Shown here: positions 3,478 through 58,386 of the stretch, piece by piece | How positions within the stretch are numbered: position 1 is the stretch's first letter | Layout of the letters: the number at the start of each line of letters is the position of its first letter | Origin: Candidatus Limnocylindria bacterium | GTDB taxonomy: Bacteria; Patescibacteriota; Saccharimonadia; Saccharimonadales; JAGQNK01 | Length of the DNA: 64,000 nt | NCBI GenBank assembly: GCA_035489815.1 | Contig: DATHJH010000032.1 | Location: 32,301 to 96,300, forward strand | Reading direction: 5' to 3' | Translations under genes and position numbers: made by a program | The notes under the pieces: generated by a model | The model's database searches: none | The model's input: only the letters and a program-made list of their open reading frames with translations | What the model was told of the DNA's origin: nothing

Positions 3478-3580
3478 GCTGAGTGCTGCCGTGGCCCATC
3501 CTGAGGGGTCAGCAAGCGCCTCGGCGGCCAAAGGCCGTCCGTAAAAGCGCTCCTCAGGATGGGCCACGGCAGCACTCAGC
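3478..3580 (+). repeat. family-1 nested hairpin element, copy A (subtype 1a)
   Basis: Perfect 29-nt arms at 3478-3506 and 3552-3580 enclose the core GGTCAGCAAGCGCCTCGGCGGCCAAAGGCCGTCCGTAAAAGCGCT. Confidence 0.9.
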
Positions 3581-5037: not shown

Positions 5038-6045
5038 ATGAAGATGCTCATTACCGGCGGCGCGGGGTTCATTGGTGCGAACTTTGTCCACTATATCCGC
5101 CAGCACTACCCTGACTATCAGATAATCGTCGTCGATAAACTTAATCAACAGGGTAACTTAGAAAACCTGGCTGCCGTTCGCGATCAGATAGAGTTTCATG
5201 AGTTTGACCTCATCGAAGAAGCCAAGCTGGTGCTTATCTTTGAGCAAGGCCTGGATTATGTCGTCCACTTTGCAGCCGAAACCAACGTAGACCGATCTAT
5301 CGAAGATCCGGACAATTTTGTGAACAGCAATGTGCTTGCCACCAACATCTTGTTGCGCCTCAGCCGTGACCACAAAGTCAAACGCTTCCACCACGTTTCT
5401 ACAGATGAGGTCTTTGGCAGCCTGGAACTCGGATCAGATGATAAGTTCAACGAGCACACCTCTTACGACCCGCGCAGTCCCTACTCTGCTACCAAAGCCG
5501 CCAGCGATCACCTGGTACGGTCCTACTTCCATACCTACGACCTGGATGTCACTATCAGTAACTGCTCCAACAACTACGGCCCTTACCAGGTACCAGAGAA
5601 CATTGTGCCGGTCTTTACCCTCATGGGCCTGCAGGACAAGCCGCTGACTATTTATGGCGACGGCAAAAGCATCCGGGATTACCTGTTTGTGCTGGACCAC
5701 TGCCGGGCCATTGACCTGATTCTGCGCAAAGGCCGTGCCGGTGAAACATACTGCGTCGGCGGTGGCCAGGAACAAAATGGCGTAGAAATCGCCGATGGTG
5801 TGCTCTCCATCCTGGATAAATCCCAGGAGCTGAAAAAGTTCGTGACCGACCGGCCCGGTCACGACCGCCGCTACGCCATTGACTACACCAAAATCAGCCG
5901 CGAACTGGGCTACCAACCAAGCGTGACATTTGAGGAAGGCCTGCGCCAAACCATCGACTGGTACCAGGCCAATACCGAGTGGTGGCAGCCCTACATGGAA
6001 AAGTTTTATGTACCGAAGTTCATGCAAAAGGACGTGGAACAATGA
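5038..6045 (+). CDS. rfbB: dTDP-glucose 4,6-dehydratase
   Basis: 335 aa. GGAGFIGANF Rossmann motif, YSATKAASDHL (YxxxK), full-length SDR-extended architecture. Confidence 0.9.
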   Translation: MKMLITGGAGFIGANFVHYIRQHYPDYQIIVVDKLNQQGNLENLAAVRDQIEFHEFDLIEEAKLVLIFEQGLDYVVHFAAETNVDRSIEDPDNFVNSNVLATNILLRLSRDHKVKRFHHVSTDEVFGSLELGSDDKFNEHTSYDPRSPYSATKAASDHLVRSYFHTYDLDVTISNCSNNYGPYQVPENIVPVFTLMGLQDKPLTIYGDGKSIRDYLFVLDHCRAIDLILRKGRAGETYCVGGGQEQNGVEIADGVLSILDKSQELKKFVTDRPGHDRRYAIDYTKISRELGYQPSVTFEEGLRQTIDWYQANTEWWQPYMEKFYVPKFMQKDVEQ

Positions 6046-6050
6046 GAGGC

Positions 6051-6159
6051 CCGGAACGGCTCACCCTTACGAATTCGTCAGGCTAAAGCTAACGCCATGG
6101 GCTGACCGAAGGTCACCCATAAAGTGGCCTAGAGAATTCGTAAGGGTGAGCCGTTCCGG
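6051..6159 (+). repeat. family-1 nested hairpin element, copy B (subtype 1b)
   Basis: Perfect 26-nt arms at 6051-6076 and 6134-6159. Core is GTCAGGCTAAAGCTAACGCCATGGGCTGACCGAAGGTCACCCATAAAGTGGCCTAGA. Confidence 0.9.
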
Positions 6160-10157: not shown

Positions 10158-10263
10158 CCCATCACAAATACCCTCTTATTCCGTCAGGGTCAGCAAGCGC
10201 CTCCGAGGGCCCATGGCCCGAGGTAAAAGCGCCCTAGAGGAATAAGAGGGTATTTGTGATGGG
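10158..10263 (+). repeat. family-1 nested hairpin element, copy C (subtype 1a)
   Basis: Perfect 25-nt arms at 10158-10182 and 10239-10263. Core is GTCAGGGTCAGCAAGCGCCTCCGAGGGCCCATGGCCCGAGGTAAAAGCGCCCTAGA. Confidence 0.9.
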
Positions 10264-16321: not shown

Positions 16322-18883
16322 ATGAAATACACCCTAGTCCCCCATCTCCCATACCTTGACAGGTCTGCCCTCCCAGAAGCAGTGCCAAACAGCCCGGCTG
16401 CCCTGAAACGTAGCTATGGCTACGTTTCAGGCACATCCAATCTGCCTGGCACTGCTTCTGGAAAGGCATCTAGCCGTCAGAGTATGGGAGATGGGGGACT
16501 AGGCAAACAGCAAGTAAAAAAGCGACTCGTGCCCACCATTGCTGCTGTTTTTGTCCTTGGTATCCTACTCCCGGCTGTTCTGCCCTCCCAGAACACAGAT
16601 GCGCTGAGCGGTTCGCAGTTTAATGCCGGACGAATCATCGATGATGCGGTGTTCTACAACAAAAACTCTATGTCCGCCAGCCAGATCCAAAGCTTCCTAA
16701 ACAGTAAGGTCCCGACTTGTGAAACCCACCATGCCAAATCTTCCAGCAGTAACGATTCCGGGCCGCCGTATAAATGCCTCAAGGACTATCGTCAAAATAC
16801 CGCCAACATTGCTCCGGACAGCGGCCTGTGTGGCGGCTACACCGGCAGAAGCAACGAAACAGCCGCCCAGATCATCTACCACGTCGCCCAAAGCTGCGGC
16901 ATAAGCCCTAAGGTCATACTGGTCATGCTCCAAAAAGAGCAAGGGCTGGTAACCGATACATGGCCATGGGACATTCAATACCGAAAGGCCATGGGCGCTT
17001 TCTGCCCGGACTCCGCCCCGTGCGATCCGGCTTATGCTGGATTCTTTTACCAGGTATACTACGGTGCTCATCGGTTCAAGGTCTATGCCGCCAACCCGGG
17101 TAGTTTCAACTACCGGGCCGGCCGCAATAACTCCATCCTCTGGAATCCCAAGACATCCTGCGGAAGGTCAACTGTGTACATCCAGAACCAGGCAACCGCC
17201 AGCCTCTACATTTATACCCCGTACCGCCCCAACCAGGCCGCCCTCAATAACCTGGGCGGCACCGGAGACAGCTGCAGCTCCTACGGCAATCGCAACTTCT
17301 GGGTATTCTATAACCAGTGGTTTGGCCCCACCACCGGCAGCCCCCTGTTCAAATTCAGTAATGACGCAACGGTGTATGTACTCGGCGCAAACAACAACTA
17401 CTACCGTATGGAAAATCGTGAAAAACTGGATATATACGGGTTCGGCGACACCATACATAGCGTCAAGACCGTCAGTACCAGCTATGTCTCCGGCCGGAGC
17501 TTTTCAGGCAACCTGCCGCTTATCGCCCGGTTCCAGGGAGATGAGGTCTACATGATTAGTGGCGGCCGGGCTCATCACTTTACCTCCCGGGCGCTGTTAC
17601 AGACATTTGGCTACGACATTGGCCAGGAAGCCCTGCTGCCGGCCGGCATTAAAGAATGGTACCCGGACGCCGAAGCCATGCAAACCACCGTTCGCAGCGC
17701 TAACGGCCCCGCTGTCTGGTCTGTCGAAGGCGGCAAGAAGCGGCACATCATCAATGGCGAGGCCTACCTTTCCGGCAGCCCCGCGTATGCGTCAAGGCCT
17801 GAGGTCACCTTATGGGAAGCCGTTATGGCGCCGATCGAAAACGGCCCGCCGATTCTGACGGCCAACAAGCTGTTAAAACGGACCGACCAAAACACTTACA
17901 TTTTCTGGGATGGCACCAAACGGCAGGAAATTTCTGCCAGAGTGGCCGCAGAGCTGCATCTGCCCCTCATCTATGCCACCAGAGCCTCCATACTCAACCA
18001 GTTACCCGCCGGGGGCACAGACATAGACAAGTATGTAAAAAACGGCGGCGGCGAGCTGTATGTCCTGGACTCGGGCCAAAAGTTCCTTGTGTCGCCCTCT
18101 GACCTCACCCAAATGGGACTTACCTCATCTTCATTCTCACTCGCCCCGGACGGATTCTTTGACTTTGTCCCCACTACTAAAGCTTTTAAACGGCTATTCA
18201 GAATTGGGAGCGACAGCGGCGTCTTCTTAATCAAAAGCGGGCAGCGCTATCACCTCATGAGCCCGGCCGCTGTTTCAGAAAGCGGCTTTGCACTGTCAGA
18301 CGCCATATCCCTGAACGACACATCAGCAAACCTGTTCCCTAATTCCGGAAAAAAGATTATGGCCAAGGGTACATTGTTCAGGATCGGCTCCAGGGATGAG
18401 GTGTTTGTAGTAAACACCGGCTCGTCCAGCCTGCACATTGTGTCTGCCCCTACCCTGAAGGACTACGGCCTGAAAATTGCCAGTACCTTCAGCCTCAACC
18501 CCACCCAGGCATCCGACTACCCAATGTCCGGAAAGCTCCGGCACATTGTGAAAGACGGCTCAAACAACGTCTGGCAGGTACAGAACGGCGCAGAGAAACG
18601 GCCCGTACCCACGCCCATGCAAGACCCCGGCGGCTATAACGTCATTGTTCCGGAATTAGCCGTTCTGGATACCAGCCTCTTTGGCGGATATGCCACTCAA
18701 TCAGACCTGACCAACCTCATACGCGCAGCGGGTGATGCCCGTGTATACAAGGTCGAAAACGGCAAAAAGCACTGGGTAACCAGTCGGGCCGTTTTTGACA
18801 CCAACGGGTTTTCACTCAGTAACGTCACGAACGTCTCCACAGGGTTCCTGAACAGCCTTGCCAGCGGTCCGAACATACACTAG
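16322..18883 (+). CDS. large exported cell-wall-associated protein: putative murein-hydrolase-like N-domain plus about 9 degenerate ~55-aa repeats
   Basis: 853-aa maximal ORF. A more likely start is the ATG at 16484 (MGDGGLGKQQVKKRL + TM), because codons 4-61 are the hairpin element. It carries the motif AAQIIYHVAQSCGISPKVILVMLQKEQGLV. The C-terminal repeats follow the pattern hYhh..G.+h.h.s...h...Gh. Confidence 0.7.
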   Translation: MKYTLVPHLPYLDRSALPEAVPNSPAALKRSYGYVSGTSNLPGTASGKASSRQSMGDGGLGKQQVKKRLVPTIAAVFVLGILLPAVLPSQNTDALSGSQFNAGRIIDDAVFYNKNSMSASQIQSFLNSKVPTCETHHAKSSSSNDSGPPYKCLKDYRQNTANIAPDSGLCGGYTGRSNETAAQIIYHVAQSCGISPKVILVMLQKEQGLVTDTWPWDIQYRKAMGAFCPDSAPCDPAYAGFFYQVYYGAHRFKVYAANPGSFNYRAGRNNSILWNPKTSCGRSTVYIQNQATASLYIYTPYRPNQAALNNLGGTGDSCSSYGNRNFWVFYNQWFGPTTGSPLFKFSNDATVYVLGANNNYYRMENREKLDIYGFGDTIHSVKTVSTSYVSGRSFSGNLPLIARFQGDEVYMISGGRAHHFTSRALLQTFGYDIGQEALLPAGIKEWYPDAEAMQTTVRSANGPAVWSVEGGKKRHIINGEAYLSGSPAYASRPEVTLWEAVMAPIENGPPILTANKLLKRTDQNTYIFWDGTKRQEISARVAAELHLPLIYATRASILNQLPAGGTDIDKYVKNGGGELYVLDSGQKFLVSPSDLTQMGLTSSSFSLAPDGFFDFVPTTKAFKRLFRIGSDSGVFLIKSGQRYHLMSPAAVSESGFALSDAISLNDTSANLFPNSGKKIMAKGTLFRIGSRDEVFVVNTGSSSLHIVSAPTLKDYGLKIASTFSLNPTQASDYPMSGKLRHIVKDGSNNVWQVQNGAEKRPVPTPMQDPGGYNVIVPELAVLDTSLFGGYATQSDLTNLIRAAGDARVYKVENGKKHWVTSRAVFDTNGFSLSNVTNVSTGFLNSLASGPNIH
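16333..16503. repeat. 171-nt triple-nested perfect hairpin element (E)
   Basis: Outer arms are 22/22 perfect (16333-16354 and 16482-16503). The middle stem is 14/14 (16373-16386 and 16448-16461). The inner stem is 12-13 bp (16403-16414 and 16419-16430) with loop TATG. Confidence 0.9.
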
Positions 18884-18899: not shown

Positions 18900-19006
18900 G
18901 GCCGAGTCAGCTACTTTCGTTCCTCTAGGGCGCTTTATGGGCGATCCTTACGGATCGGCCCATGGCGCTTGCTTACCCGGACGGAACGAAAATAACTGGC
19001 TCGGCC
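18900..19006 (-). repeat. family-1 nested hairpin element, copy F (subtype 1b, core on minus strand)
   Basis: 24-nt arms at 18900-18923 and 18983-19006 with 21 WC pairs. The minus-strand core is GTCCGGGTAAGCAAGCGCCATGGGCCGATCCGTAAGGATCGCCCATAAAGCGCCCTAGA. Confidence 0.9.
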
Positions 19007-21925: not shown

Positions 21926-22095
21926 GCTGTGGAGTAGGATAGCATAAACCTGTGCCACTGATGGCACGTGGATCAGAGCGCACACAGGTAGGCAGCGCCA
22001 TGAGTCAGCCTAGGACTGCTCATAGCGCCAAACCACTGCTGATGGGTCAGTGATAGCCTTTATAGTCCAGGTATAAATATAGTAGAGTACCTGTA

Positions 22096-24852: not shown

Positions 24853-24974
24853 GCTCTGTATTCCCCTCGTTGTTTTAATTCACAAAGGAAATAGTACTTC
24901 ATGTATATATGCTTAACAATATGTAAGACTGTTTATTTTAGTGTGGTTTTGACAACTGGGGCCAACACTTCAAA

Positions 24975-25022
24975 AAACTGTACTTTTATTTTGTCCGGCC
25001 GGATATAAATGGAGTACAGTTT
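24975..25022. promoter_or_regulatory. imperfect 48-bp palindrome (candidate operator) upstream of the PaaX/Cas2-fold gene
   Basis: AAACTGTACT-N-GTCCGGCCGGAT-N-AGTACAGTTT. It shares its ends and its centre with the perfect palindrome at 25545-25598. Confidence 0.6.
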
Positions 25023-25033
25023 CAGAGGACATC

Positions 25034-25549
25034 ATGAAAAGAAGCAGGAGCACCAAAGATTTACCAAACTCAGCCCTGGCCTATGTACTGGAGGCCTTGA
25101 TCCCTTACTCTGATGCGAACGTAAAGCTAGCTTTCAAGCCGCACCTATTCTTTAACGACCTTGAGAACATTGCCCGGCAAAAGCAAAGCCTCAGCTACCG
25201 TCGTCAAACTTTACGGAATGCTTTTTACCACGCCAAGCGTAGTGGATTTATTGAGTTTAGTAAGTCTGGTGGCCCACGCCTTACGCGCAAAGGGGAAGCG
25301 TACTTAAAGCCCTATGAGCCAAGCAAGCTTGGCGACTCCGCACGACTCATGGTTATATTTGATATCCCGGAAGAACAGCGAGCCAAGCGTCGCTACCTAA
25401 GGCTCATACTTAGACAGTTAAAATTCAAAATGGTTCAGCAAAGTGTTTGGATAAGTAAGTACGATTGCAAAACGATTCTTCATGATGAGATCGAAGCGTA
25501 TGAGCTGCAGGCTTATGTTCAAATATACGAGTGCGTTCGATTATTATAA
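25034..25549 (+). CDS. PaaX-like / Cas2-fold domain DNA-binding protein
   Basis: 171 aa. The C-terminal RLMVIFDIPEEQRAKRRYLRLILRQLKFKMVQQSVWISKYD matches the ferredoxin-like Cas2/PaaX-middle-domain pattern. The N-terminal half is wHTH-like. Confidence 0.6.
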   Translation: MKRSRSTKDLPNSALAYVLEALIPYSDANVKLAFKPHLFFNDLENIARQKQSLSYRRQTLRNAFYHAKRSGFIEFSKSGGPRLTRKGEAYLKPYEPSKLGDSARLMVIFDIPEEQRAKRRYLRLILRQLKFKMVQQSVWISKYDCKTILHDEIEAYELQAYVQIYECVRLL

Positions 25550-25598
25550 CTGTACTCTAAAAATGTCCGGCCGGACATTTTTAGAGTACAGTTATAAG
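25545..25598. terminator. perfect 54-bp palindrome; candidate bidirectional intrinsic terminator and/or operator
   Basis: 27/27 perfect arms centred on GTCCGG|CCGGAC, flanked by A5/T5 runs. It contains the stop codon of the ORF at 25034-25549 and lies between convergent genes. Confidence 0.7.
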
Positions 25599-25630
25599 AG
25601 ATGACAGCCCTGTCTAAGAGGATCTTGGGG

Positions 25631-30786: not shown

Positions 30787-31611
30787 TCAGATCTCCTCCG
30801 CAAAATACTTAGAGCGCTTGCGAAAATACGCAGAACTTATGAGCAGAGCGATAACTACCAGGGTAAATGGTATCAGGCGAGCCATTGGGTTATGGAATAC
30901 GTCGCCAGTCTGCAAATTGCTGTCGTGGGTTATGACTGCCCGGGAGTCCTGGATTATTTGCGCCAGGGGGTTAGAGATAATGAGCTTTTGCAGAGGTGAA
31001 GAGTCTATGAGGCTTAGGGGGTAAAGGATGGGTATGGTGTAGAACATAGCTTGCTTGAGGATGTCCCATATATGCTCAATGTCGCGGTAGCGTACATACA
31101 GGGCTGACAGGAAGAAGCCTGTTGATACTGACACTACGACCAGCTCGACCAGCAGGAGCGGGAATATAATGACGGTCAGCCAGGACAACGCAGTATCATG
31201 AGCAAACAACACAAAGATAAAGACTACGACGAGGTTTAAGGACATGTTGATGAATGCCGAGGATATGGCGGCCACGGGGATGAGGTAGCGGGGTATGTTT
31301 ATTTTGCGGATGAGGCTGCCTTTGTCGACAATCGAGGAAAGGGCGTTGGATGTTGCCTCTGTGAAAAAGTTCCATAGTACGATACCCAGCAGTAGTGATA
31401 TGGGGTAGTTGGGTACTCCTCTGCCAATATGCAAGAACCTGGTAAATACCGTGTAGAGGATGGCAAACAACATGAGCGGCTTCAGCAGCGACCACAAATA
31501 GCCCAGGACGGAACCTTGGTACCTAAGTTTGAAGTCTGTTCGGATCATCTCCAGCAGCAGGCTTTTGTAGGTTTTCTGGAAGGCTTTTACTGTTCTTGTG
31601 AGCTTCATCAA
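30787..31611 (-). CDS. ABC-2 type polysaccharide exporter permease (Wzm/TagG-like)
   Basis: 274 aa, 6 TM helices, immediately upstream of the ATPase. Confidence 0.85.
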   Translation of the reverse strand: MMKLTRTVKAFQKTYKSLLLEMIRTDFKLRYQGSVLGYLWSLLKPLMLFAILYTVFTRFLHIGRGVPNYPISLLLGIVLWNFFTEATSNALSSIVDKGSLIRKINIPRYLIPVAAISSAFINMSLNLVVVFIFVLFAHDTALSWLTVIIFPLLLVELVVVSVSTGFFLSALYVRYRDIEHIWDILKQAMFYTIPILYPLSLIDSSPLQKLIISNPLAQIIQDSRAVITHDSNLQTGDVFHNPMARLIPFTLVVIALLISSAYFRKRSKYFAEEI

Positions 31612-31681
31612 GTAGAATAATTATATATGATAGTTCGTCGGGTAGTATACCCGCATTGTCTTATTATCACGAGATGCCTTG

Positions 31682-31782
31682 GCCGGCACCGACCACTCGC
31701 CCCCCTAGGGCGCTTTTACGAATTGCCTAACGGCGATTCGAGGCGCTTGCTGACCCTAGGGGGCCAAGCAGTCGGTGCCGGC
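31682..31782 (-). repeat. family-1 nested hairpin element, copy I (subtype 1a, core on minus strand)
   Basis: 26-nt arms at 31682-31707 and 31757-31782 with 22 WC pairs. The minus-strand core is GGGTCAGCAAGCGCCTCGAATCGCCGTTAGGCAATTCGTAAAAGCGCCC. Confidence 0.9.
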
Positions 31783-31796
31783 TGGCCCGTGGAGTT

Positions 31797-35462: not shown

Positions 35463-37226
35463 ATGTGCGGTATCTTTGGCCACACACAACCCGGCAAGAA
35501 CCCGACCGCCTCACGGCGTGCTTTGAACACTTTAGCCCACCGCGGGCCAGACCAATGGAACGACTGGCAGGACAAGGAAGTGTATGTGGGCCACCGGCGG
35601 CTCAGCATTATCGATCTGTCTGAACATGGGCGGCAGCCTATGTCTGCCCAGGGCGTTGTTATAACGGTGAATGGGGAAATCTATAATTACAAAACCCTCA
35701 AAAAAGAACTGGGGAACAAGTACGCCTACCAAAGTGATTCTGACTCAGAAGTCCTCATCTACGGCTATCTGGAATGGGGCATGGACAAGCTTCTGGAAAA
35801 ATTAGAAGGTATGTATGCTTTTGTGCTGTACGACACCAGGCAGAGGAAACTCTTTTTGGGCCGGGACCGGGCGGGCATCAAACCCTTGTACTATTCGCAT
35901 AAGGGCGGCCAAATAGCCTGGGCCTCAGAGCTCAAAGCCCTTACCAGTTTCCATACCGAGGCAAAGCTGGAGGTTGACTCCACGGCCGTCTACGACTACC
36001 TGACCTACCGGTACATCCCCACCCCAAAAACGCTCTACAAGGACGTATACAAACTGCCGCCGGCGCAGTACCTGGAACTGGACCTGCACACGCACAAGCT
36101 CCAGAAAAAACAGTATTGGACACTCGGGCTTGTCAAAATCAACCCAACCCTGGACGAGGCCGCCGCCAAAGTCAGGGAACTGGTCGACCAAGCCGTCCAG
36201 GAACAGCTGATGAGCGACGTCCCAGTGGGCTTTTTCCTGAGCGGCGGCATGGACTCCAGCACCGTCGTAGGCATAGCCGCCCAGCACAGCAAACAGCTAA
36301 ACACCTACGCCATCGGTTTTGATATAAAAGAGCACGACGAAACCCACTTTGCCGAACTGGTAGCCAAAAAGTTTAAGACCAATCACCGGCGCAAGGTCGT
36401 GTCTGTGGGTGAGGTCAAAAAACTCTTCCCCAAAATCAAAGACTGGTACGACGAGCCTTTTGCTGACACCTCCACCTTCCCGGTTTACATAGTGTCCAAG
36501 CTCACCAAGCCCAGTTCAACAGTGGTGTTGACCGGCGACGGCGGAGACGAAGTCTTTGGCGGCTACAACTGGTACGCCGACTTCAAAAAAAATGCCCCTG
36601 GTTTTATCAAAGAGAACTACCCCGGCTCCCGACTAAAAAGAAAACTCACCCGGTCCCACCAGGCAACCATCACCAACCTGGAGTTCGCCTACTACACCAA
36701 ACTCATGGGCGGCCTGACCCGGGAAGAAAAGGCCGGCTACCGCAAACAATTCGGTATAGCTGACTCCTACGATGACTATTGGTATTTTAGAAAATTCTAC
36801 CGGCCAGAACTGCCCCTCTATACCCGCCTGCAATACCTGGACTTTCACACCTATCTGCATGACGACATCTTAACCAAAGTCGACCGGGCCAGCATGGCCG
36901 TAGCCCTGGAGTGCCGGGTACCACTGCTGTCCACCCCCCTCATCGAGTACCTGTTTTCTCTGCCGGAAAATATTCGCTATCACAACGGTGAGCTTAAGGG
37001 ACTTATGAAATACGCCTTCCACGACCTGCTGCCGGATGAAATCCTAAACCGCAAAAAAAAAGGCTTCAGCATCCCCACCGGCCGCTGGCAGCCAAACCTG
37101 ATGGAGCGGGACACCACCGTACCAGAGTTCATCCTCAAAAAGTTTTTCAATAATACCACGGGTCGGTCCAAAACGGCTGCCCCTTCACAGCACAAAAGGC
37201 TTCAGCATAGCCGGCGTAATTTTTGA
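35463..37226 (+). CDS. asnB: asparagine synthase (glutamine-hydrolysing) family amidotransferase (WbpS-like context)
   Basis: 587 aa. MCGIFG N-terminal nucleophile, PP-loop FLSGGMDSS. The last ~20 codons overlap hairpin element K. Confidence 0.85.
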   Translation: MCGIFGHTQPGKNPTASRRALNTLAHRGPDQWNDWQDKEVYVGHRRLSIIDLSEHGRQPMSAQGVVITVNGEIYNYKTLKKELGNKYAYQSDSDSEVLIYGYLEWGMDKLLEKLEGMYAFVLYDTRQRKLFLGRDRAGIKPLYYSHKGGQIAWASELKALTSFHTEAKLEVDSTAVYDYLTYRYIPTPKTLYKDVYKLPPAQYLELDLHTHKLQKKQYWTLGLVKINPTLDEAAAKVRELVDQAVQEQLMSDVPVGFFLSGGMDSSTVVGIAAQHSKQLNTYAIGFDIKEHDETHFAELVAKKFKTNHRRKVVSVGEVKKLFPKIKDWYDEPFADTSTFPVYIVSKLTKPSSTVVLTGDGGDEVFGGYNWYADFKKNAPGFIKENYPGSRLKRKLTRSHQATITNLEFAYYTKLMGGLTREEKAGYRKQFGIADSYDDYWYFRKFYRPELPLYTRLQYLDFHTYLHDDILTKVDRASMAVALECRVPLLSTPLIEYLFSLPENIRYHNGELKGLMKYAFHDLLPDEILNRKKKGFSIPTGRWQPNLMERDTTVPEFILKKFFNNTTGRSKTAAPSQHKRLQHSRRNF

Positions 37227-37291
37227 CCTCGTGGCCAAAATTACCCGCGCGAAGCGGTCTTCTGGGTGGGAAGGGGCAGCTGTTTTGGACC
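37165..37291. repeat. 127-nt hairpin element (K) straddling the asnB stop codon
   Basis: 22-nt arms at 37165-37186 and 37270-37291. 21/22 are WC pairs and one is G:T. Confidence 0.8.
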
Positions 37292-42869: not shown

Positions 42870-43349
42870 TTACGGTGCCGGTTTGAAAACAACGTGGCGG
42901 TCCGGACCTTCGCCCTCCGATTCGGTTTGCAGGCCGGCGTCAGTGGCCACCTTGTGTACCGTACGGCGATCGGTAGCGTTCATCGGCTTAAGGTGCAGAG
43001 GCTCGCCGGAGTCCTTGACAATAGCCACCCATTCCCCGGCCTGCTGAGCCAGGCGGTCGGCCCGGGATTTTTTATAATCAGCCACGTCAACATTTACCCG
43101 GCTGGCAGCATAGCCTTGATTCTTCAGGGCATTACTTGTCACAAACTGCAGGGCGCGCATGGTGTCGCCGCGCTGGCCGATCAGAAAGCCGTTCAGGTGC
43201 GTGCTGGGCACATGGAGTTCTATAACCTCGTTATCCTCAGTTGTAGCATAAATGTCGGTGTTCAGGCCAAAGAAAGACAGGATGTCTTCCAGATACTTCT
43301 TGGCATACTGAATAGCTGCTTCTATATCCATAGGCTTTGCGTCTGGCAT
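42870..43349 (-). CDS. jag: Jag/KhpB RNA-binding protein (KH + R3H domains)
   Basis: 159 aa. R3H region LKPMNATDRRTVHKVA. Conserved position downstream of yidC, with the start overlapping the yidC stop. Confidence 0.8.
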   Translation of the reverse strand: MPDAKPMDIEAAIQYAKKYLEDILSFFGLNTDIYATTEDNEVIELHVPSTHLNGFLIGQRGDTMRALQFVTSNALKNQGYAASRVNVDVADYKKSRADRLAQQAGEWVAIVKDSGEPLHLKPMNATDRRTVHKVATDAGLQTESEGEGPDRHVVFKPAP

Positions 43350-44320
43350 TATCTCCTCCTCTTTTTAGCTGACTTTGAGGAAGATTTCTTATTTTTGGTT
43401 TTCGGTTTACCCTGAGTTTGTTGAACTGGGCGGACGGGTTTTTTAGAGACAACTTCGCCCTCTATGATTTTTTTCTTATTGGATTTGTCAGGCTGGTCAG
43501 CAATAGCTTCCAGCTCCTCTTCATCTTGCCTCAGTATGATGTACTGCTGCAGGTAGGCCACCAGACCGCTTACAAACCAATACAGTCCCAAGGCCGAGGG
43601 CAGGTTAATGGTAAAAACAAATATCATGACCGGTATAAAAAATCGGGTGCTGCGGCCGACAGCAGCATTAACCTCTCCCTGATCGGACTTTTTGCCCGAA
43701 CCGGCATCCTTCAGGATTTGGCGTAGCGTTCGGGCGTCTTTTTCAGTCGGCATCAACTGAACGGCCTGGAAATACTGGGTAACCGCGCTGCCGGCAACCA
43801 GGAACATAGCCGGCCAGTAAATACCGCCGCCTGATGGAATAGCGGCTTTAGTAAGGTCAATAAACCCAAGGAATGTCGCGTCAAACTGGCCGATGTTTTC
43901 GGCCAGGGACTTCAGCCAACCCAGGTTCTGCAGGTACGGGTAGGAAAACTCAATCACTGCATGCGGATTCTTAACTACCTTTTGCAGGCCAGAGTAAAGG
44001 CCCAGCAGAATGACGAGCTGAATGGCCAGCACGCCCAGGGAACCAAAGGGGCTGACCTCGCGCTCCTTATAGAGCTCCATAACCATCATGGATTCTTTCT
44101 GGCGGTCGCCTTTGGCTTCTTTTTTAATGCGCTTCAACTCTGGCTGAAGCCTCCGCATAGCTTTGGCATGATGCAGCTGCTTCTTAATAAGCGGCCACAT
44201 CAGCAGACGGATGACGATAGTAAATATTACAAGCGCCAGGCCAAAATTGTGACCGGGCAGCAGGGCATAAATCAGAACAAGCAGATTAAAGATTGGCTGG
44301 ACTATGAATGACTGGAACAT
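43349..44320 (-). CDS. yidC: membrane protein insertase YidC (short monoderm type, Lys-rich C-tail)
   Basis: 323 aa. GLALVIFTIVIRLLMWPL, QPELKRIKKE, MELYKEREVSPFGS. Confidence 0.9.
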   Translation of the reverse strand: MFQSFIVQPIFNLLVLIYALLPGHNFGLALVIFTIVIRLLMWPLIKKQLHHAKAMRRLQPELKRIKKEAKGDRQKESMMVMELYKEREVSPFGSLGVLAIQLVILLGLYSGLQKVVKNPHAVIEFSYPYLQNLGWLKSLAENIGQFDATFLGFIDLTKAAIPSGGGIYWPAMFLVAGSAVTQYFQAVQLMPTEKDARTLRQILKDAGSGKKSDQGEVNAAVGRSTRFFIPVMIFVFTINLPSALGLYWFVSGLVAYLQQYIILRQDEEELEAIADQPDKSNKKKIIEGEVVSKKPVRPVQQTQGKPKTKNKKSSSKSAKKRRR

Positions 44321-44422
44321 GTTTTCTCCCTCAGGTTATACCCATAATACCAAACTAACGCCTGTACGGCAGGGTGTTAAACAAAAAGCGAACACTTATA
44401 TATCCCGAAAGTATCCCCAAAA

Positions 44423-44767
44423 CTATAAAATGCGGGCCTGGCGAAGCTGGTCCAGCACGGTCTTTTCAAGCTCTGCAGCCGGAATAGCAGCCATCTGTTC
44501 GCTATAAACTGTCAATACCATGTCATAAGGCCTCGACATGTCTGCCTCGTGCCGGCGAACCGCCTCATATAAACGGCGGCGGATACGGTTACGCACAACG
44601 GCCGATTTGTTGACCTTTTTACTGACTACCACTGCCAGCCGGTAGGAGGTGCGACGGTCGTTAGGAGCAACCTTCAAACTGGACAGAGGACCGCGAACGG
44701 TCCGGCCGTGCTGATAAACGTAACGCAGGCTGCCGTATCCGTGGAAGCGATGTTTTCGCGCAATCAT
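44423..44767 (-). CDS. rnpA: ribonuclease P protein component
   Basis: 114 aa. RLAVVVSKKVNKSAVVRNRIRRRL. Synteny with rpmH. Confidence 0.9.
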   Translation of the reverse strand: MIARKHRFHGYGSLRYVYQHGRTVRGPLSSLKVAPNDRRTSYRLAVVVSKKVNKSAVVRNRIRRRLYEAVRRHEADMSRPYDMVLTVYSEQMAAIPAAELEKTVLDQLRQARIL

Positions 44768-44876
44768 GCTATGGAAACCGTCTACTGCCCTTCCCGGTTT
44801 TTTTAATATTTGACATGAGCCAAAAAAAGTTTTACAAATGTTTAAAAGTGCTTTGTATTCTGAAGTATAAAACTGT

Positions 44877-45014
44877 TCAGGCAGATATCTTCTTGCGGCC
44901 CTTGATGCGGCGGCGCTGTAAAACCGCCCGCCCTGCCTTGCTGGCCATGCGCTTCATAAAGCCATGCTGTCGGGCACGCTTGCGGGTCTTCGGCTGATAA
45001 GTTCTTTTTGGCAT
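44877..45014 (-). CDS. rpmH: 50S ribosomal protein L34
   Basis: Translated manually (under 60 aa, so absent from the ORF track): [49 protein letters not shown] lies upstream. Confidence 0.9.
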
Positions 45015-45254
45015 TTTCTTCTCCTTAATGCTCTATTGTAATCAAGCTTTCAACTGTTGCCTAGGTCTCACACCTGGACGCCGGGGTGTATTCTTGCCGG
45101 GAAACGGACCGGACCGTATTTAATGAGGTACGGTAAGGAGTATCCCGGATAAAAATCGCGCCGGGCGGCGGTGAGGACAGCGTGCGGGGGCCCAGGGTGT
45201 TTTTAACAATGGTTATTCGCTTATATTAGCAACTTTTCCCCATTTTTTCAACTA

Positions 45255-45360
45255 TTTTCCACAGATATTACAGAGGTGGTCTTTAGATGTGTACAAGTCT
45301 GCCCCTGTTCCTGAAAAATTATAGGGGTTCCTTCTTATTCCAAACACAGGTTGTGGAAAA
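45255..45360. promoter_or_regulatory. pair of inverted DnaA-box-like 9-mers upstream of dnaA
   Basis: TTTTCCACA at 45255-45263 and its reverse complement TGTGGAAAA at 45352-45360. Each has one mismatch to TTATCCACA. Confidence 0.6.
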
Positions 45361-45415
45361 GTGATATATTTGTTGGTAGACTCTTAGAACAGATTCTGGA
45401 AGGAGTACGGAGGGT

Positions 45416-46798
45416 ATGCAAGACAGCCTGTGGCAAGCAGTACTGGGGGAGATAGAGCTGACGGTTTCCCGGGGTCATTACGTCACGTGGTTTAAAAATA
45501 CCCGGCTGCTCCGCCATCAGAACGACACGCTCGTCATAGGCGTTCAGAATGTCTTTGTAAAACAACAACTGGAACGCAAGTTCAATCAGCTCATAACCGA
45601 TACTTTAGAAAAAAACGGTGTAAAGCCGGAACACATCGAATACAAGATAGACTCTGGTATGGCTCAATCCCGAAAGGCAGATGATGAACTTTCCGGGACC
45701 ACCGTGCTCAGGAATCCTGAAAAAAGGTCTGTCGTCCAGGCAGCCGGCAAGTCCAGCCGTACCACGCTCACCCACACTTACCGCCAGGGACTGAATACGA
45801 AATATACCTTCGACAGTTTCATAGTTGGCTCCGGCAACGAACTGGCTTATGCTGCCTGCCAGGCTATCGCTCAAAATCCGGGCAGCAAGTATAATCCCCT
45901 CTTTGTCTACGGCGGCGTTGGTATTGGCAAAACACACCTCATTCAGGCCGCGGGCAACGCCGTTATCGCCAGGAATCCTGCTGCTCATGTCGTCTATGTT
46001 TCCACGGAACAGTTTGTGCAGGAGTTTCTGGATGCTATCCGGTACAAGAAAAATACCGATTTTGCCGGCTTTTACCGGAGCGCCGATGTGCTGATTATCG
46101 ACGATATGCAGTTTATCGCCGGTAAGGAAAAGACGCAGGAAGAATTCTTTCACACCTTTAATGCCCTTCACCAGGCCAACAAACAGATCATTATCAGCAG
46201 TGACAAGCCGCCGAAAGACATCCCCACCCTGGAGGAACGGCTGCGCAGCCGGTTTGCCTGGGGCATGAGTATAGATATGCAGATCCCGGACTTTGAGACG
46301 CGCTGTGCTATTGTCCAGACCAAGGCCCACGAGCACGCCACTACCCTGCCCCCGCCAGTGGTAGAGTTCCTGGCTAACCTCATCCAGACCAATATCCGTG
46401 AACTGGAAGGCGCCCTGAACCAACTGCTGGCTTTTTGTGAAATGAGGGGGCTGGAACCCGAACTTACCTTAGCCACCAGCCTGTTGGGCACCAGCAAAAC
46501 CCGGCCCAAGCATTTAAGTGCCAAGCAGATTATTGAACGAACCGCCAAGCACTTCCAGATCCCCCTGGAGGAAATGCTGGGCCCAAAAAGAGACAAAGAC
46601 ATCGTCGTACCCCGCCAGGTGGCTATGTATATGCTGCGGAGCGAACTACACCTGAGCTTCCCAAAAATCGCCCGGGAACTGGGCCGCAAGGACCACACTA
46701 CCGCCATTCATTCCGTCGAAAAAATCACCAGGGAATCCGGCCTGGACCCGGTTATAAAAGCCGCCATCACCGAAATCAAGGAGCGTCTCTATGCTTAG
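45416..46798 (+). CDS. dnaA: chromosomal replication initiator protein DnaA
   Basis: 460 aa. Walker A GGVGIGKTHL, DDMQFIAGKE, C-terminal DNA-binding KDHTTAIHS. Confidence 0.95.
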   Translation: MQDSLWQAVLGEIELTVSRGHYVTWFKNTRLLRHQNDTLVIGVQNVFVKQQLERKFNQLITDTLEKNGVKPEHIEYKIDSGMAQSRKADDELSGTTVLRNPEKRSVVQAAGKSSRTTLTHTYRQGLNTKYTFDSFIVGSGNELAYAACQAIAQNPGSKYNPLFVYGGVGIGKTHLIQAAGNAVIARNPAAHVVYVSTEQFVQEFLDAIRYKKNTDFAGFYRSADVLIIDDMQFIAGKEKTQEEFFHTFNALHQANKQIIISSDKPPKDIPTLEERLRSRFAWGMSIDMQIPDFETRCAIVQTKAHEHATTLPPPVVEFLANLIQTNIRELEGALNQLLAFCEMRGLEPELTLATSLLGTSKTRPKHLSAKQIIERTAKHFQIPLEEMLGPKRDKDIVVPRQVAMYMLRSELHLSFPKIARELGRKDHTTAIHSVEKITRESGLDPVIKAAITEIKERLYA

Positions 46799-47135
46799 AA
46801 TTAGCACTGACCCACAAACCCTGCCCGGAGGAATTTCCGGCTGTCAGTCAGGTACCATGAGTGCTAAAAATCTGTGGGAAATTTGTGCACAAGCTGTGCA
46901 GAGGCTGTGGGTTGGACTGGGACAAAACCGGCACCTTACACACAGGCGGCTGGCGGCTGGCGGGACACTGTGGGAAAAACCGGGATTTTTGCACGGGTTG
47001 TACCACTTTTGTACTCAGGATTTGCCCACATATTTTTATACCTTTACGCCTCTGTTGTTAGGACAATTGTCCACCCCGTCCACAGGCCCTACTAAAACTA
47101 CTACTATATATAATAAGTAATTAAGGAGTATAGGA
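46799..47135. other. candidate oriC (dnaA-dnaN spacer with DnaA-box cluster and AT-rich unwinding segment)
   Basis: TGTGGGAAA occurs at 46873-46881 and 46969-46977. Weaker boxes lie at about 46906, 47022-47030 (TTGCCCACA), 47067-47075 and 47078-47084. An AT-rich run sits at about 47096-47125. Confidence 0.65.
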
Positions 47136-48227
47136 ATGAAACTGCAAGTCACCCAGGAAAACCTCACCCGAGCCCTAAACAATGTCAGCCGGGTAGCTAA
47201 TACACGCGGCACCCTGCCCATTCTGGCGAACGTCCTGCTCAAGACCGTGGGTAATCGCCTCAGTATCGCTGCCACCAACCTGGATATTGCCATCACTCAT
47301 TACATTGGCTCCAAAGTCGGTGAAGAAGGCTCTATAACCGTCCCTGCCCGGTTGATGCAGGATTTTGTAAGCAGCCTGCCGAGCGGTGTCATAGACCTCA
47401 AGCTGGATGATTACAAGCTCAACATCAGTACTGACAAATACCAGTCGGTTATTAACGGCATTTCGGCCGAGGACTATCCGGTTATGCCAGCTATAGCTGA
47501 CGGCAAAAGCTGGAAAATAGCCGGCAAAACTCTCAAGGCCGGTCTACAGCAGGTGGTTATGGCGGCGTCAAACGATGAAGCCCGACCAGTTCTGACCGGG
47601 GTGTACCTTCACAGTCACGAAGGAGACCTGTATATGGTGGCCACAGACAGTTACCGCCTGGCCGAGAAGAAGCTTATGAAGTCCACTGACGAGGTGCAGC
47701 TTCTCATACCGGCTACCGCCCTCCAGGATTTGCTGCGTATTCTGGGCGAGTATGAGGGTGATGTGAATGTGACGCATGATGACCAGCAGGTGCTGTTCAA
47801 GGTGGGCGACATCGAGTTAGTTACCCGACTTATCGAGGGCAGTTACCCTGATTACCGCAAACTCATTCCGTCCAATTTTGCCTCCAGCGCCAAGCTGAAG
47901 CGGGCTGACCTCACAAACATTACCAAGGTGTCCAGCCTGTTCGCCCGTGAAAGTGCCGGCAGTGTGACTATCCACCTGGACGGTGAAAAATCCCAGGTGA
48001 GCATCCGCTCAGTCGCCTCGCAGTTAGGAGAGAACACATCTGCGGCGACAGCCGAGGTCACAGGCGACGGCATAATAACCCTTAATTCACGGTATATTCT
48101 GGATGCCCTGCATGCTCTCAGCGGCGAGGATGTCACCTTCTCTTTTAACGACAAACTGGAACCAACCGTCCTGGCCGACCCAAAGGCTGGCGACTATCTG
48201 CATGTCATTATGCCGCTCAAGTCGTAA
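47136..48227 (+). CDS. dnaN: DNA polymerase III beta sliding clamp
   Basis: 363 aa with a typical N-terminus (MKLQVTQENLTRAL...LPILANVLL) and three-domain length. Confidence 0.95.
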   Translation: MKLQVTQENLTRALNNVSRVANTRGTLPILANVLLKTVGNRLSIAATNLDIAITHYIGSKVGEEGSITVPARLMQDFVSSLPSGVIDLKLDDYKLNISTDKYQSVINGISAEDYPVMPAIADGKSWKIAGKTLKAGLQQVVMAASNDEARPVLTGVYLHSHEGDLYMVATDSYRLAEKKLMKSTDEVQLLIPATALQDLLRILGEYEGDVNVTHDDQQVLFKVGDIELVTRLIEGSYPDYRKLIPSNFASSAKLKRADLTNITKVSSLFARESAGSVTIHLDGEKSQVSIRSVASQLGENTSAATAEVTGDGIITLNSRYILDALHALSGEDVTFSFNDKLEPTVLADPKAGDYLHVIMPLKS

Positions 48228-48645
48228 ACGGATTTTTGACAGTTAGACCACCATACTTACGTCCATCTTGTAAATCCTCGCTATAGAGAATGGCGCAGTT
48301 GAGATCTATAGCAGCTTGTACAATAAGTGCATCGTAAAAACTGAGAGAGTGCCCAGCGTGAAGGGCGACAGCACTGTTATAAAAGTAAATATCCGGAGTG
48401 TGTTTTAAGAGCCTCCTCATAAAAGTATTGAGTATACTTTCAAGATCAAGATCCAGGGTGGTTTTTTTAAATTTCCCGGTAGCAATATTGCAAAACTCTT
48501 GAACCACCTGTGAACTGATGCAGCCCCGGCCGGACCGCAGTGCATCCCGGATAAGCGTGTTGGCCGTGCTTTGCTTAACCTTATCCCGAGGGTCTAGCGC
48601 ATAAATGAGAATGTTTGTATCTAGAAAATAGCTCTGTTTTGGCAA
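48217..48645 (-). CDS. PIN-domain toxin (VapC-like)
   Basis: 142 aa. YFLDTNILIYAL (Asp1), SFYDALIVQAA, ILYSEDLQ acidic residues. Confidence 0.8.
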   Translation of the reverse strand: MPKQSYFLDTNILIYALDPRDKVKQSTANTLIRDALRSGRGCISSQVVQEFCNIATGKFKKTTLDLDLESILNTFMRRLLKHTPDIYFYNSAVALHAGHSLSFYDALIVQAAIDLNCAILYSEDLQDGRKYGGLTVKNPFTT

Positions 48646-48647
48646 GT

Positions 48648-48866
48648 CTATCTCTCGTTCATTTCTTCTCTGGTAAATTTACGTCCTGGCTGGACGTAGC
48701 TTAGTCGCTTCATAAGTTCATTGTATTCCCTGACGGCTCGTTCTCGATCTGTGTATTGTTTGAGCCACTCACGAAAAAGGTTGTTAAGCGTAGTATTCTG
48801 GGAACGCGCTCGTTCTCTGGCAGCTTCAATAAGCTTTTCATCGGCAGAAAGAGTAATGTTTTTCAT
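48648..48866 (-). CDS. ribbon-helix-helix antitoxin (VapB/CopG-like)
   Basis: 72 aa. MKNITLSADEKLIEAARERA beta-strand-helix pattern. It lies 2 nt upstream of the PIN gene. Confidence 0.7.
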   Translation of the reverse strand: MKNITLSADEKLIEAARERARSQNTTLNNLFREWLKQYTDRERAVREYNELMKRLSYVQPGRKFTREEMNER

Positions 48867-48935
48867 ACGACAATAGTGTACACAGCTATAGTGCTACCGT
48901 CAATAAAGCTTCTCTCTATCGTATACTGGTAACAC

Positions 48936-49997
48936 ATGTTGGACTCAGTGAGATTACAGAGGTTTCGGTCGTACCGGGACGAGTCTTTTGAATTTGACCC
49001 CGGGGTGAATATTATCGTCGGGCCGAATGCCAGCGGCAAGACAAATCTGCTGGAGGCGCTCCTTGTCAGCTACACGGGCGGTTCCTTTCGGGCTAAGGAT
49101 GGAGAGCTGGTGGCTTTTGGAGCGCCCTGGGCGCGGCTGGATGTCCTGGGGCCTGGTGGCGGTCGTACAGTAAAACTGCTCGTGCAGGAAAACGGGTTGG
49201 TAAAGAAAGAGTTTGTCATTGGGGATCAAAAGCTTGTGCGCTTGAGTTTGCAGAAGTCGCTGCCGGTAGTGTTGTTTGAGCCGAATCACCTGCTTCTGCT
49301 GCACGGCTCACCCGATCTCAGGCGTGAGTATATGGACGCTCTGCTGGAGCAGACCGTGGCGGGGTATGGGAAGATCCGGCGGGATTATCGCCGGGCTTTG
49401 GCTCAGCGTAATGCGCTCTTAAAACGTGGTGCATCCGCCCGGGGTCAGCTATTTGCCTGGGACATCCGGCTGAGCGAGATTGGTGCGCGTATTGCAAGCG
49501 AGCGTAATGCTCTTGTGCGGCGAATGAACGGACAGTTAGGGTTGCTCTACCACTCCATGGCCCGTTCTCGTGCCAATACAGTGACTGTTACATATGCAGC
49601 CAGCTGTGACATCACCCAGTACAGCTCAAGCCTGCTACACGCCCTGGAAAAGCGCCAGGACGTGGATATTGAACGTGGATACACTACAATCGGACCGCAT
49701 CGTGAGGATTTGGTCGTGGCTTTTGACGGGCGGGAGGCGTCGCAGGTTGCTTCCCGCGGAGAGACGCGTACCATATTGTTGGCCCTCAAGGTCATGGAGC
49801 TACAGTTCATAGAGGAGGCCCGCGGCACTCAACCGATCCTCCTCCTGGATGACGTCTTCAGCGAACTGGACGGTGCCCGCCGCCGGGCCCTGACAGAAGT
49901 CATCAGCGGCTACCAAACCTTTATAACCACCACCGACGCGGACGTCGTGGTCCAGCATTTTATGAATAAGTGCCGGATCATTCCTCTCGGCGGCTAG
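48936..49997 (+). CDS. recF: DNA replication and repair protein RecF
   Basis: 353 aa. Walker A GPNASGKTNLLEAL, signature/Walker B LLLDDVFSELD. Confidence 0.95.
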   Translation: MLDSVRLQRFRSYRDESFEFDPGVNIIVGPNASGKTNLLEALLVSYTGGSFRAKDGELVAFGAPWARLDVLGPGGGRTVKLLVQENGLVKKEFVIGDQKLVRLSLQKSLPVVLFEPNHLLLLHGSPDLRREYMDALLEQTVAGYGKIRRDYRRALAQRNALLKRGASARGQLFAWDIRLSEIGARIASERNALVRRMNGQLGLLYHSMARSRANTVTVTYAASCDITQYSSSLLHALEKRQDVDIERGYTTIGPHREDLVVAFDGREASQVASRGETRTILLALKVMELQFIEEARGTQPILLLDDVFSELDGARRRALTEVISGYQTFITTTDADVVVQHFMNKCRIIPLGG

Positions 49998-50011: not shown

Positions 50012-50117
50012 GCCACACATGCTACCTGCTGAATCTCTAGGCCGCTTTATAGGTGGCCTTACGGCCAGCCTATGGCGCTAGCTTTAGCCTGACGATTCAG
50101 CAGGTAGCATGTGTGGC
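50012..50117 (-). repeat. family-1 nested hairpin element, copy M (subtype 1b, core on minus strand)
   Basis: Perfect 24-nt arms at 50012-50035 and 50094-50117. The minus-strand core is GTCAGGCTAAAGCTAGCGCCATAGGCTGGCCGTAAGGCCACCTATAAAGCGGCCTAGA. Confidence 0.9.
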
Positions 50118-51807: not shown

Positions 51808-52611
51808 TCATCCCTCTGCCGGGCAGCCCTGGCCGCTGGTAAACTGCGTGAAATAGTTGGCGGCCTGGGTTTGGCGGCGTGGAACGGCCTGGCTCATCCG
51901 GCCGGGTATTTCGTAGTGCCGGGTAATGATTTCGCTGGCTGCCCGGGGGTCGGCGTCTGCTCCTAGTGCTGTAAGCGGGTCAAGCGTACTGTTTCTGTAA
52001 GGGCCGTTTAGTTCACGCCAGATTGCCTCCAGCTGGACGCTCCTGGTGCCTGGTGCCTGGCCGAGTTCGTCGGCGACTATCTGCAGCTGATCCTTCCTGC
52101 CCGGCGAGGTGAACTGTATAAGTCCATAGCCGCCCCCCAACTGGTCGCCGCCGCTTCGCCGCTCGCGGCTAATGTAGATACGACCGGCAGAGTCTTTATA
52201 CTGCACGGGCGGTATCTGGTCGTCCAGGCTGGTGGGCTGCCCGGCCCGGGATATTTCACCCCTTGAGTTTTGCCAGCTGTACTCAACCAGCCGGGGTTCA
52301 AAATGCGCTTCTTCTACCATGTTACCCAGGAAGCCAGCTGCCACCCCCGGCGCTAAGCTTCTGGTCTGGGTAAAGTAGTTCCATATCTCCTCGGCGGCGT
52401 TGCAGCCTTGCAGGGGTGCTCCGGCAGCCGGGTCGGTCTGTCTTTGGGCGTCTATGACCTCGTGATCAAAATGGCCGATTTCTTTGTCGAATATGGCTTT
52501 TTGTTCTCTGGACAGGGCTGCTACGGAAACAGCCGGAATAAACAGCTGGGCAACCAGGCCGGCCAACCCCAACCCTATCAAAAGTTTTGCTGCTACCTTG
52601 TGTCGTCTCAT
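51808..52611 (-). CDS. secreted peptidoglycan hydrolase candidate (phage-tail-lysozyme-like domain)
   Basis: The start at 52611 (MRRHKVAAKL) is preceded by an AGGAGG RBS. Signal anchor present. FLGNMVEEAHFEP and GGGYGLIQFTSPGRKDQL resemble the GN..ES...P / GiGl.QWT..R pattern. Confidence 0.6.
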   Translation of the reverse strand: MRRHKVAAKLLIGLGLAGLVAQLFIPAVSVAALSREQKAIFDKEIGHFDHEVIDAQRQTDPAAGAPLQGCNAAEEIWNYFTQTRSLAPGVAAGFLGNMVEEAHFEPRLVEYSWQNSRGEISRAGQPTSLDDQIPPVQYKDSAGRIYISRERRSGGDQLGGGYGLIQFTSPGRKDQLQIVADELGQAPGTRSVQLEAIWRELNGPYRNSTLDPLTALGADADPRAASEIITRHYEIPGRMSQAVPRRQTQAANYFTQFTSGQGCPAEG

Positions 52612-52612
52612 A

Positions 52613-55366: not shown

Positions 55367-55387
55367 AGTTGTTTATGCTTTTCTGTA

Positions 55388-57289: not shown

Positions 57290-57403
57290 GGAATGCTCCT
57301 TCCAGTCGCGAAGTCAGGAGTGCGGAGTCAGAAGAAAGGAGATCTAACCCCTTCGCACTTCGCACTTCTATCTTCTCACTCCTAAAAGGCGACAGCATTT
57401 TAC

Positions 57404-58381: not shown

Positions 58382-58386
58382 GGGTT

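Follow-up and report, generated by a model that had tools for sequence, protein, structure and literature searches.

The hairpin at positions 18900 to 19006 of the window (the whole stretch of 64,000 nucleotides that was analyzed) belongs to an undescribed family of hairpin repeats, each about 100 bases long, that are scattered between genes and limited to some Saccharimonadales. All members have a conserved, asymmetric core of about 57 nt, closed by an outer stem of 17 to 33 bp (22 to 33 bp in most copies) whose sequence no two copies share, and covariation in the aligned sequences strongly supports a single-stranded fold as what is conserved. We tentatively regard this hairpin, copy F, as one copy of a dispersed, noncoding REP-like or MITE-like repeat that is mobile, or rapidly turning over, at the DNA level. 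The folded strand may be single-stranded DNA (as for REP/RAYT and IS200/IS605-type elements) or a transcript; we lean slightly toward a life cycle at the DNA level, in which RNA hairpins would be incidental to read-through.

Family members and their common fold

Copies within the window were obtained by repeat finding and pattern searches, and external copies by one scan each of genome and metagenome collections. A covariance model (R1) built from 21 copies recovered, with cmsearch, 22 full copies (6 in the window and 16 in external Saccharibacteria contigs) as well as one armless partial core. The core pattern was matched 5 times against 0 expected; the family can be described by CTAGGNCRCTTTN{18,32}GGCGYTWGCT. 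True copies were confined to contigs of Candidatus Saccharibacteria/Saccharimonadales, the other matches in the scanned collections being without the hairpin, and among the Saccharibacteria of the species-level genome collection the core pattern was matched in three MAGs only. Rfam 15 gave no match at the gathering threshold over the window, searches with copy F and four external loci at E values of up to 10 or 5 returned only noise, and no description was found in the literature on hairpins, repeats, or noncoding RNAs of Saccharibacteria, TM7x, or Patescibacteria. IMG/VR held no exact match for the core pattern or for three 20-mers from the arms; a role of the arms as spacers against phages was rejected on that result and on the finding that no arm had a second copy in any DNA examined.

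Copy F has its core sense on the minus strand and scores 90.2 bits (E = 3e-18) over its 107 nt. Its outer stem pairs a unique 24-nt 5′ arm, GGCCGAGCCAGUUAUUUUCGUUCC (18983 to 19006), with a 24-nt 3′ arm, GGAACGAAAGUAGCUGACUCGGCC (18900 to 18923). The conserved core between them (18924 to 18982, delimited from alignment A1 and the structure analysis) runs in the order bulged G, UC, CGGG, the U of the U.G pair, the bulge AAGCAA, P2 GC, GCC, the P3 hairpin, AAA, GC, G, CCCU, bulged A, and GA. The inner hairpin P3 (18937 to 18963) reads AUGGGC(C)GAUCC-GUAA-GGAUCGCCCAU; one C is bulged, and the loop is of the GNRA type. In place of GUCAGG, copy F reads GUCCGG, a variant that it has in common with the external copies L018 and L036.

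Perfect outer stems, free of any mismatch, are found in 12 of the 22 copies. They include, in the window, copies B (6051 to 6159, plus strand), C (10158 to 10263, plus strand), and X (50012 to 50117, minus strand), the last two lying between convergent genes (recF and a 526-aa gene in the case of X). The armless core at 21987 to 22029 (plus strand; 20.8 bits, E = 0.047) has the form GGCAGCGCC-hairpin-AGCGCC and is probably a decayed copy. A faint likeness to this core (AAGCAAGC...CACGGGCATAAG) was seen in the orthologous spacer (about 6040 to 6100) of the closest relative, L043.

Read in the core sense, the family consensus opens with the copy-specific arm of 17 to 33 nt, followed by a bulged G and by UC paired with GA (with a bulged A on the 3′ strand), then by AGG(G/C) paired with (C/G)CCU and by an invariant U.G (U22.G68). 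A bulge of 6 to 7 nt, MAGCWA, in which AGC is invariant, leads into the 2-bp helix P2 (R-C/G-Y) and an internal loop formed by GCC opposite AAA(A). The inner hairpin has the consensus AYGGG-C-UNNNC ... loop ... GNNNA-CCCRU, one C being bulged, and the 3′ arm ends the element. With the structure so specified, the share of paired cells is 89.5%, compared with 71% in shuffled alignments, and 26 of 34 pairs have double changes; the observed values were reached by 0 of 500 shuffles. Pairing falls to 34 to 46% when partners are slid by 1 to 3 columns, and RNAalifold, unaided, returned the same structure. Compensatory changes are present in P1, P2, and P3, with R:Y covariation of P2 in 21 of 21 copies (17 G:C and 4 A:U). 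The family therefore has the compensatory-change-backed secondary structure that marks a structured noncoding RNA, a signal that a single-stranded DNA hairpin would give identically. An alternative 4-bp GCGC/GCGC register for P2 was rejected because it breaks the R30:Y67 covariation, and a reading of the core as a small ORF because changes in loop length, judged by eye, break any reading frame.

Every core contains two AAGCGCC words at a spacing of about 36 nt, and many copies lie just upstream of promoters, as would suit a double-stranded DNA site at which a regulator or nucleoid protein binds the two direct repeats near promoters. We consider such a site very improbable, given that a duplex has no need of the compensatory changes in all three helices, that the neighboring genes are functionally unrelated, and that relatives are without copies.

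Strand asymmetry and polarity

The preliminary description had named F and I (31682 to 31782, core sense on the minus strand, 101 nt) as the copies with imperfect outer arms, had counted 7 non-Watson-Crick arm positions between them, 5 being G-U wobbles in the core sense and 1 a wobble on the plus strand, and had taken this asymmetry as a sign of an RNA helix transcribed in the core sense. Direct reading of the sequence and alignment of the 5′ and 3′ arms, with strand-symmetric scoring, reproduced the count exactly. On the minus strand, the exceptions in copy F are one C.A (18999/18907) and two U.G (18995/18911 and 18992/18914), and those in copy I are three G-U (31770/31694, 31769/31695, and 31766/31698) and one G.G (31764/31700); on the plus strand the same positions give 1 wobble, five A.C, and one C.C. 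Among the six copies in the window, F and I are indeed the only ones with imperfect outer arms, the one G.U of copy A falling within a core helix. An exception in the opposite direction, which had also been pointed out in the inner stem of copy I, is there as a C.A in P3. The 5:1 split of wobbles in the arms of F and I is not significant (two-sided binomial P = 0.22).

Over all 22 copies, the outer stems contain 619 Watson-Crick pairs, 11 core-sense G-U pairs, 3 A.C (G-U pairs when the antisense strand is read), and 19 mismatches of other kinds. From the inner hairpins come a further A.C (copy I) and a G.U (L005, read by eye where the automatic alignment stopped short), for a family-wide G-U:A.C count of 12:4 in the core sense (two-sided P = 0.077) and of 7:2 without F and I (one-sided P = 0.09). 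The tally across copies that had been proposed as a check thus goes in the same direction as F and I, falls short of significance (P = 0.08), and is only a trend; the bias is real yet too weak to mark the element as a functional RNA. It is not accompanied by a preference in folding energy: with RNA parameters, the minimum free energies of 21 copies differed between strands by a mean of −0.8 kcal/mol and split 11:10 (Wilcoxon P = 0.55), the values for the two strands being −66.6 and −63.3 kcal/mol for F and −75.7 and −67.3 kcal/mol for I. With DNA folding parameters F had no strand preference and I still favored the core sense. Energy asymmetry was accordingly dropped as a strand test, being not significant with RNA parameters and mixed with DNA parameters; the hairpins are far from chance (z of −8 to −15, with −7 to −10 given for F and I on either strand).

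Composition bears on these counts in two ways. The cores of F and I are both on the minus strand, which is the G+T-enriched leading strand left of about 45 kb, and the mutational bias of that strand, which acts in the direction of the count, could contribute to it. In the other copies the core-sense strand is not locally G+T-rich, and composition therefore does not explain their wobble events. The window spans a replication origin (about 44.8 to 45.4 kb), as judged from yidC, dnaA, dnaN, and recF at 43349 to 49997 and a cumulative GC-skew minimum nearby, at about 44 to 48 kb. Left of this origin, three copies are on the plus strand and two on the minus strand, which does not fit strict dependence on the lagging-strand template, and a replication-strand rule for orientation was rejected as these copies point both ways.

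Generic long palindromes, such as terminators, mRNA stabilizers, or cruciform spacers, would account for such hairpins if the asymmetry were chance plus replication-strand mutation bias. Neither 5:1 nor 12:4 is significant, F and I are on the leading strand, rich in G+T, neither strand of the hairpins folds better than the other, and other, unrelated long palindromes are found at 16333 to 16503, 37165 to 37291, 24959 to 25021, and 25544 to 25610. This explanation nevertheless seems unlikely to us: it does not lead one to expect an asymmetric 57-nt core with invariant unpaired bases that is conserved across lineages, nor a tag on one side only; a U-tract is missing, and at least 7 copies are found between divergent promoters, a setting that calls for no terminator.

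The polarity of the element is seen in its unpaired positions and its flanks. Apical loops in the core sense (the inner-hairpin set plus copy L001) contain 41 A, 14 U, 8 G, and 12 C, with GNRA loops in 4 copies (GUAA three times and GCAA once). Purines predominate in the unpaired core segments, and loops and bulges are rich in A. The word CCACGGGC (with at most one mismatch), which is the same as the 5′ strand of the consensus inner hairpin, lies 5′ of the core-sense arm, 0 to 8 nt upstream, in 7 of 21 copies: in copy I (site 31783 to 31792, the tag being 2 nt upstream of the 5′ arm) and in L029, L031, L021, L038, L004, and L036. In the 30-nt flanks of the 21 copies it was never found on the 3′ side and never as its reverse complement; against a background of 1% per 30-nt window this gives a P of about 1e-9 for a motif that was chosen after inspection of the data. 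The end of the 3′ arm tends to GGC(A/C), followed by AAAC. Taken together, the A-rich and GNRA loops, the purine-rich unpaired core, the invariant U.G, and the one-sided tag indicate that the element is truly oriented, and make the GUCAGG-sense strand the better candidate for the folded form.

Much of the same evidence bears on the main rival to a DNA-level repeat, a structured RNA that acts in the GUCAGG sense as a protein-binding or catalytic domain closed by a long P1; in a variant of it, P1 could be cut by RNase III to free a small stable RNA, or the element could act in cis on mRNA ends. In its favor are the wobble counts (12:4, and 7:2 outside F and I, which local composition does not explain), the invariant U22.G68, the P2 covariation, the GNRA and A-rich loops and bulges, and a tandem G.A in P3 of copy C. 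Moreover, the unpaired core segments of L005 and L013 are 100% identical even though their neighboring MsrA genes are no more than about 42% identical, which could mean a host-level function. G.T is the least destabilizing mismatch in single-stranded DNA hairpins too, and wobbles are equally tolerated there, so that the wobble asymmetry cannot separate RNA from single-stranded DNA. With neither a strand preference in folding energy nor an Rfam match, and with the genomic context described below, we view a structured RNA as possible but doubtful.

Genomic context and turnover among relatives

In the Pfam-scanned ORFs of the window and the scanned neighbors of external copies, the flanking genes are unrelated housekeeping genes. 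A link to one pathway, e.g., polysaccharide genes, was rejected, as external copies flank polA, priA, hcp, msrA, ABC-F, and MFS genes. Between tandem genes, the core is in the sense orientation in B, L036, and L034 and antisense in F, L005, and L021, a 3:3 division that speaks against a structured RNA; at least 7 copies lie between divergent genes. Strong −10-like hexamers beside the element face outward (on the 5′ side in 13 copies and on the 3′ side in 10), the few inward-facing −10 matches are mostly palindromic, and no conserved promoter or terminator accompanies the copies, all of which again counts against a transcribed unit. Copy A (3478 to 3580, plus strand) illustrates this arrangement, being placed between two outward-facing −10 boxes, the back-to-back promoters of its divergent neighbors.

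Copy F starts 16 nt past the stop codon of a plus-strand gene, with the TATACT of the next gene 25 nt beyond it, a geometry in which read-through gives the strand antisense to the core. No terminator-like site coincides with F; it has no U-tract, and a T-run precedes the hairpin, so that the combination of a GC-rich hairpin and a U-tract at a gene 3′ end that typifies intrinsic terminators is not what is seen here. Copy I lies between the sole AT-rich promoter cluster (31610 to 31660) and a plus-strand TPR gene, and transcription of its neighbor would probably read it, too, antisense to the core. An insertion of copy I into the coding start of the TPR gene was considered and rejected, with no detectable homology to the N termini of relatives. 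By promoter geometry as predicted from sequence, which is unfavorable for A, F, and I, the context speaks against a transcript of F or I in the core sense. Of the original RNA-helix reading, what stands is a polar element with a folded single strand, as borne out by the covariation, the 12:4 count, the loops, and the U.G; its assignment to RNA is at odds with the promoter context of the two copies from which it was drawn.

Presence of the element differs between close relatives. In L043 (neighboring protein 81% identical, synteny kept) the F locus is empty, three further syntenic relatives have no copy in 67 kb, and the syntenic relatives of the F-flanking protein, at five loci in four organisms (L043/L044, L045, L046, and L047), are without copies. 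At the locus in L036 that is orthologous to that of copy B, the flanking proteins are 90 to 93% identical and both loci have an element, with non-homologous arms and different spacers and core subtypes. A further orthologous pair, L013 (2590 to 2697) and L001 (7910 to 8000), shares an ABC-F flank that is 91% identical and the promoter word caaacaatgctatactg. Here the core subtype is the same, and the two loci hardly differ in core or proximal arm; the distal arm is different, and the two cores are opposite in orientation relative to the same ABC-F promoter. Either the core was flipped by recombination between the arms, or the element was inserted anew. Orientation that differs between orthologous loci, and absence from close relatives, are further points against a structured RNA.

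The repeat that we favor would be mobile, and its mobility is something that we infer; against this reading, no insertion event was caught among the loci compared, and the flanks of the elements have no consistent direct repeat or target-site duplication (one possible 7-bp repeat flanks L024). Also against it, no transposase, HUH enzyme, RAYT/Y1, integrase, or reverse transcriptase was found in the roughly 40 Pfam-scanned ORFs of the window or in the scanned neighbors of external copies. Logan assemblies of SRR7026476 and SRR7026477 (L041, L042, L048, and L049) were 100% identical to the window ends, which places the organism in both data sets; the contig of the window could be extended by only about 3 kb of identical sequence. 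Within the window, a type IV secretion-like gene cluster at 51808 to 59589 encodes a phage-tail-lysozyme-domain protein, a VanY-domain protein of 917 aa, a TraG/VirB4-like ATPase, and a PrgI-family protein.

Likeness to known elements and possible origin of the arms

Like REP/REPIN sequences, the element is a short, noncoding, extragenic palindromic repeat with a patchy distribution across species, and like them it is polar and probably folds as a single strand. REPs (for CGTC-tagged REPs, see Di Nocera et al. 2013, PMC3733652) carry an unpaired tag on one side; in the element CGUC spans the junction of arm and core in nearly all copies (alignment A1 columns 14 to 17 in about 17 of 21), internal where the GTAG/CGTC tag of REPs is terminal, and the separate word CCACGGGC lies 5′ of the arm. 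The 8- to 9-bp stems of REPs are conserved in sequence; the element has instead a conserved 57-nt apex with internal loops upon a long stem that is different in every copy, and its outer stems share no sequence, in contrast to the 20- to 40-nt unit with a conserved stem that defines REP/REPIN. REPs also favor gene 3′ ends and have a RAYT, whereas the element is often in divergent promoter regions and no RAYT was seen in the scanned ORFs near it.

MITEs and repeats with terminal inverted repeats that are transcribed as hairpins (ERIC and the Correia elements of Neisseria) resemble the element in being intergenic, about 100 to 150 nt long, folded into long hairpins, and present or absent between relatives. 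They have conserved terminal inverted repeats and direct target-site duplications; the element has unique arms and no duplication, and so falls outside the definition of a MITE. Integron attC sites are likewise imperfect, sequence-variable palindromes of about 60 to 140 nt that are often found just after stop codons, and act when their single bottom strand is folded, extrahelical bases setting the choice of strand. Conservation in attC lies at the stem base (R and L boxes), with a variable apex, the reverse of the element, whose copies have mixed orientations and housekeeping neighbors, with no integrase or co-oriented cassette array found. Small RNAs with a variable P1, e.g., multi-copy self-cleaving ribozymes, are alike in their asymmetric conserved core, covarying helices, GNRA or A-rich loops, and free closing helix; a P1 of 22 to 33 perfect base pairs is atypical of them, and there was no Rfam match even at E values of up to 10. 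In its architecture (a variable closing helix, internal loops, GNRA, and U.G) the core looks more like a structured RNA than like known single-stranded DNA transposon ends.

An unrelated palindrome in the window offers a view of how long arms may arise. At 16333 to 16503 is a three-tier palindrome of 171 nt (minimum free energy of −118.9 kcal/mol) that is absent from L043. In a MAFFT alignment its 3′ outer arm, GTATGGGAGATGGGGGACTAGG, aligns with the native L043 sequence CTATGGGTAAATATATACTAGG just upstream of the orthologous start codon, and this arm now supplies the ATG of a 799-aa protein. The 160 nt to its left are an insertion that includes the 5′ arm, which repeats the 3′ arm in inverted form without a mismatch. 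Inverted duplication of a flank has thus supplied an arm to at least one long palindrome of this genome. If it also took place at GUCAGG elements, it would explain arms that are unique, perfect, and different between orthologues, without selection on RNA; that it operates there is our inference, weakly supported by the alignment of F with L043. Two related palindromes with the centre TGTCCGGCCGGA (24959 to 25021 and 25544 to 25610) flank a 171-aa ORF (25034 to 25549) with a PaaX_M/Cas2-like domain, and a long inverted repeat at 37165 to 37291, not a family member, has 25-nt arms that are 92% complementary and 77 nt apart and overlaps the end of an asparagine synthase gene.

For the DNA-level repeat that we favor, a working mechanism would be as follows. 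The asymmetric core of about 57 nt would be recognized when its GUCAGG-sense strand is single and folded, presumably by a trans-acting protein encoded elsewhere, and would be what the family requires to persist and spread. The outer stem would not be maintained by selection on an RNA helix; it would be made and re-made in DNA by local inverted duplication of the flank, through template switching or self-correction on the quasi-palindromic core. It is somewhat unlikely, yet worth bearing in mind, that the family is something new in kind, whether a non-autonomous element whose core builds a long perfect stem from its flanks and is flipped by arm recombination, or a structured or processed RNA specific to Saccharibacteria.

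The wobble asymmetry from which this analysis set out is a fair test of which strand folds, provided that many copies are used and replication-strand bias is controlled for, and its outcome is the same for RNA and single-stranded DNA. Saccharibacteria have tiny, streamlined genomes, which makes a proliferating 100-nt repeat notable, the more so at a density of 6 copies in 64 kb beside the origin of replication and with none in close relatives. A conserved apex upon a unique, perfect stem inverts the usual rule for bacterial repeats, and this inverted architecture points to an undescribed route by which palindromes are generated or to an undescribed structured RNA.
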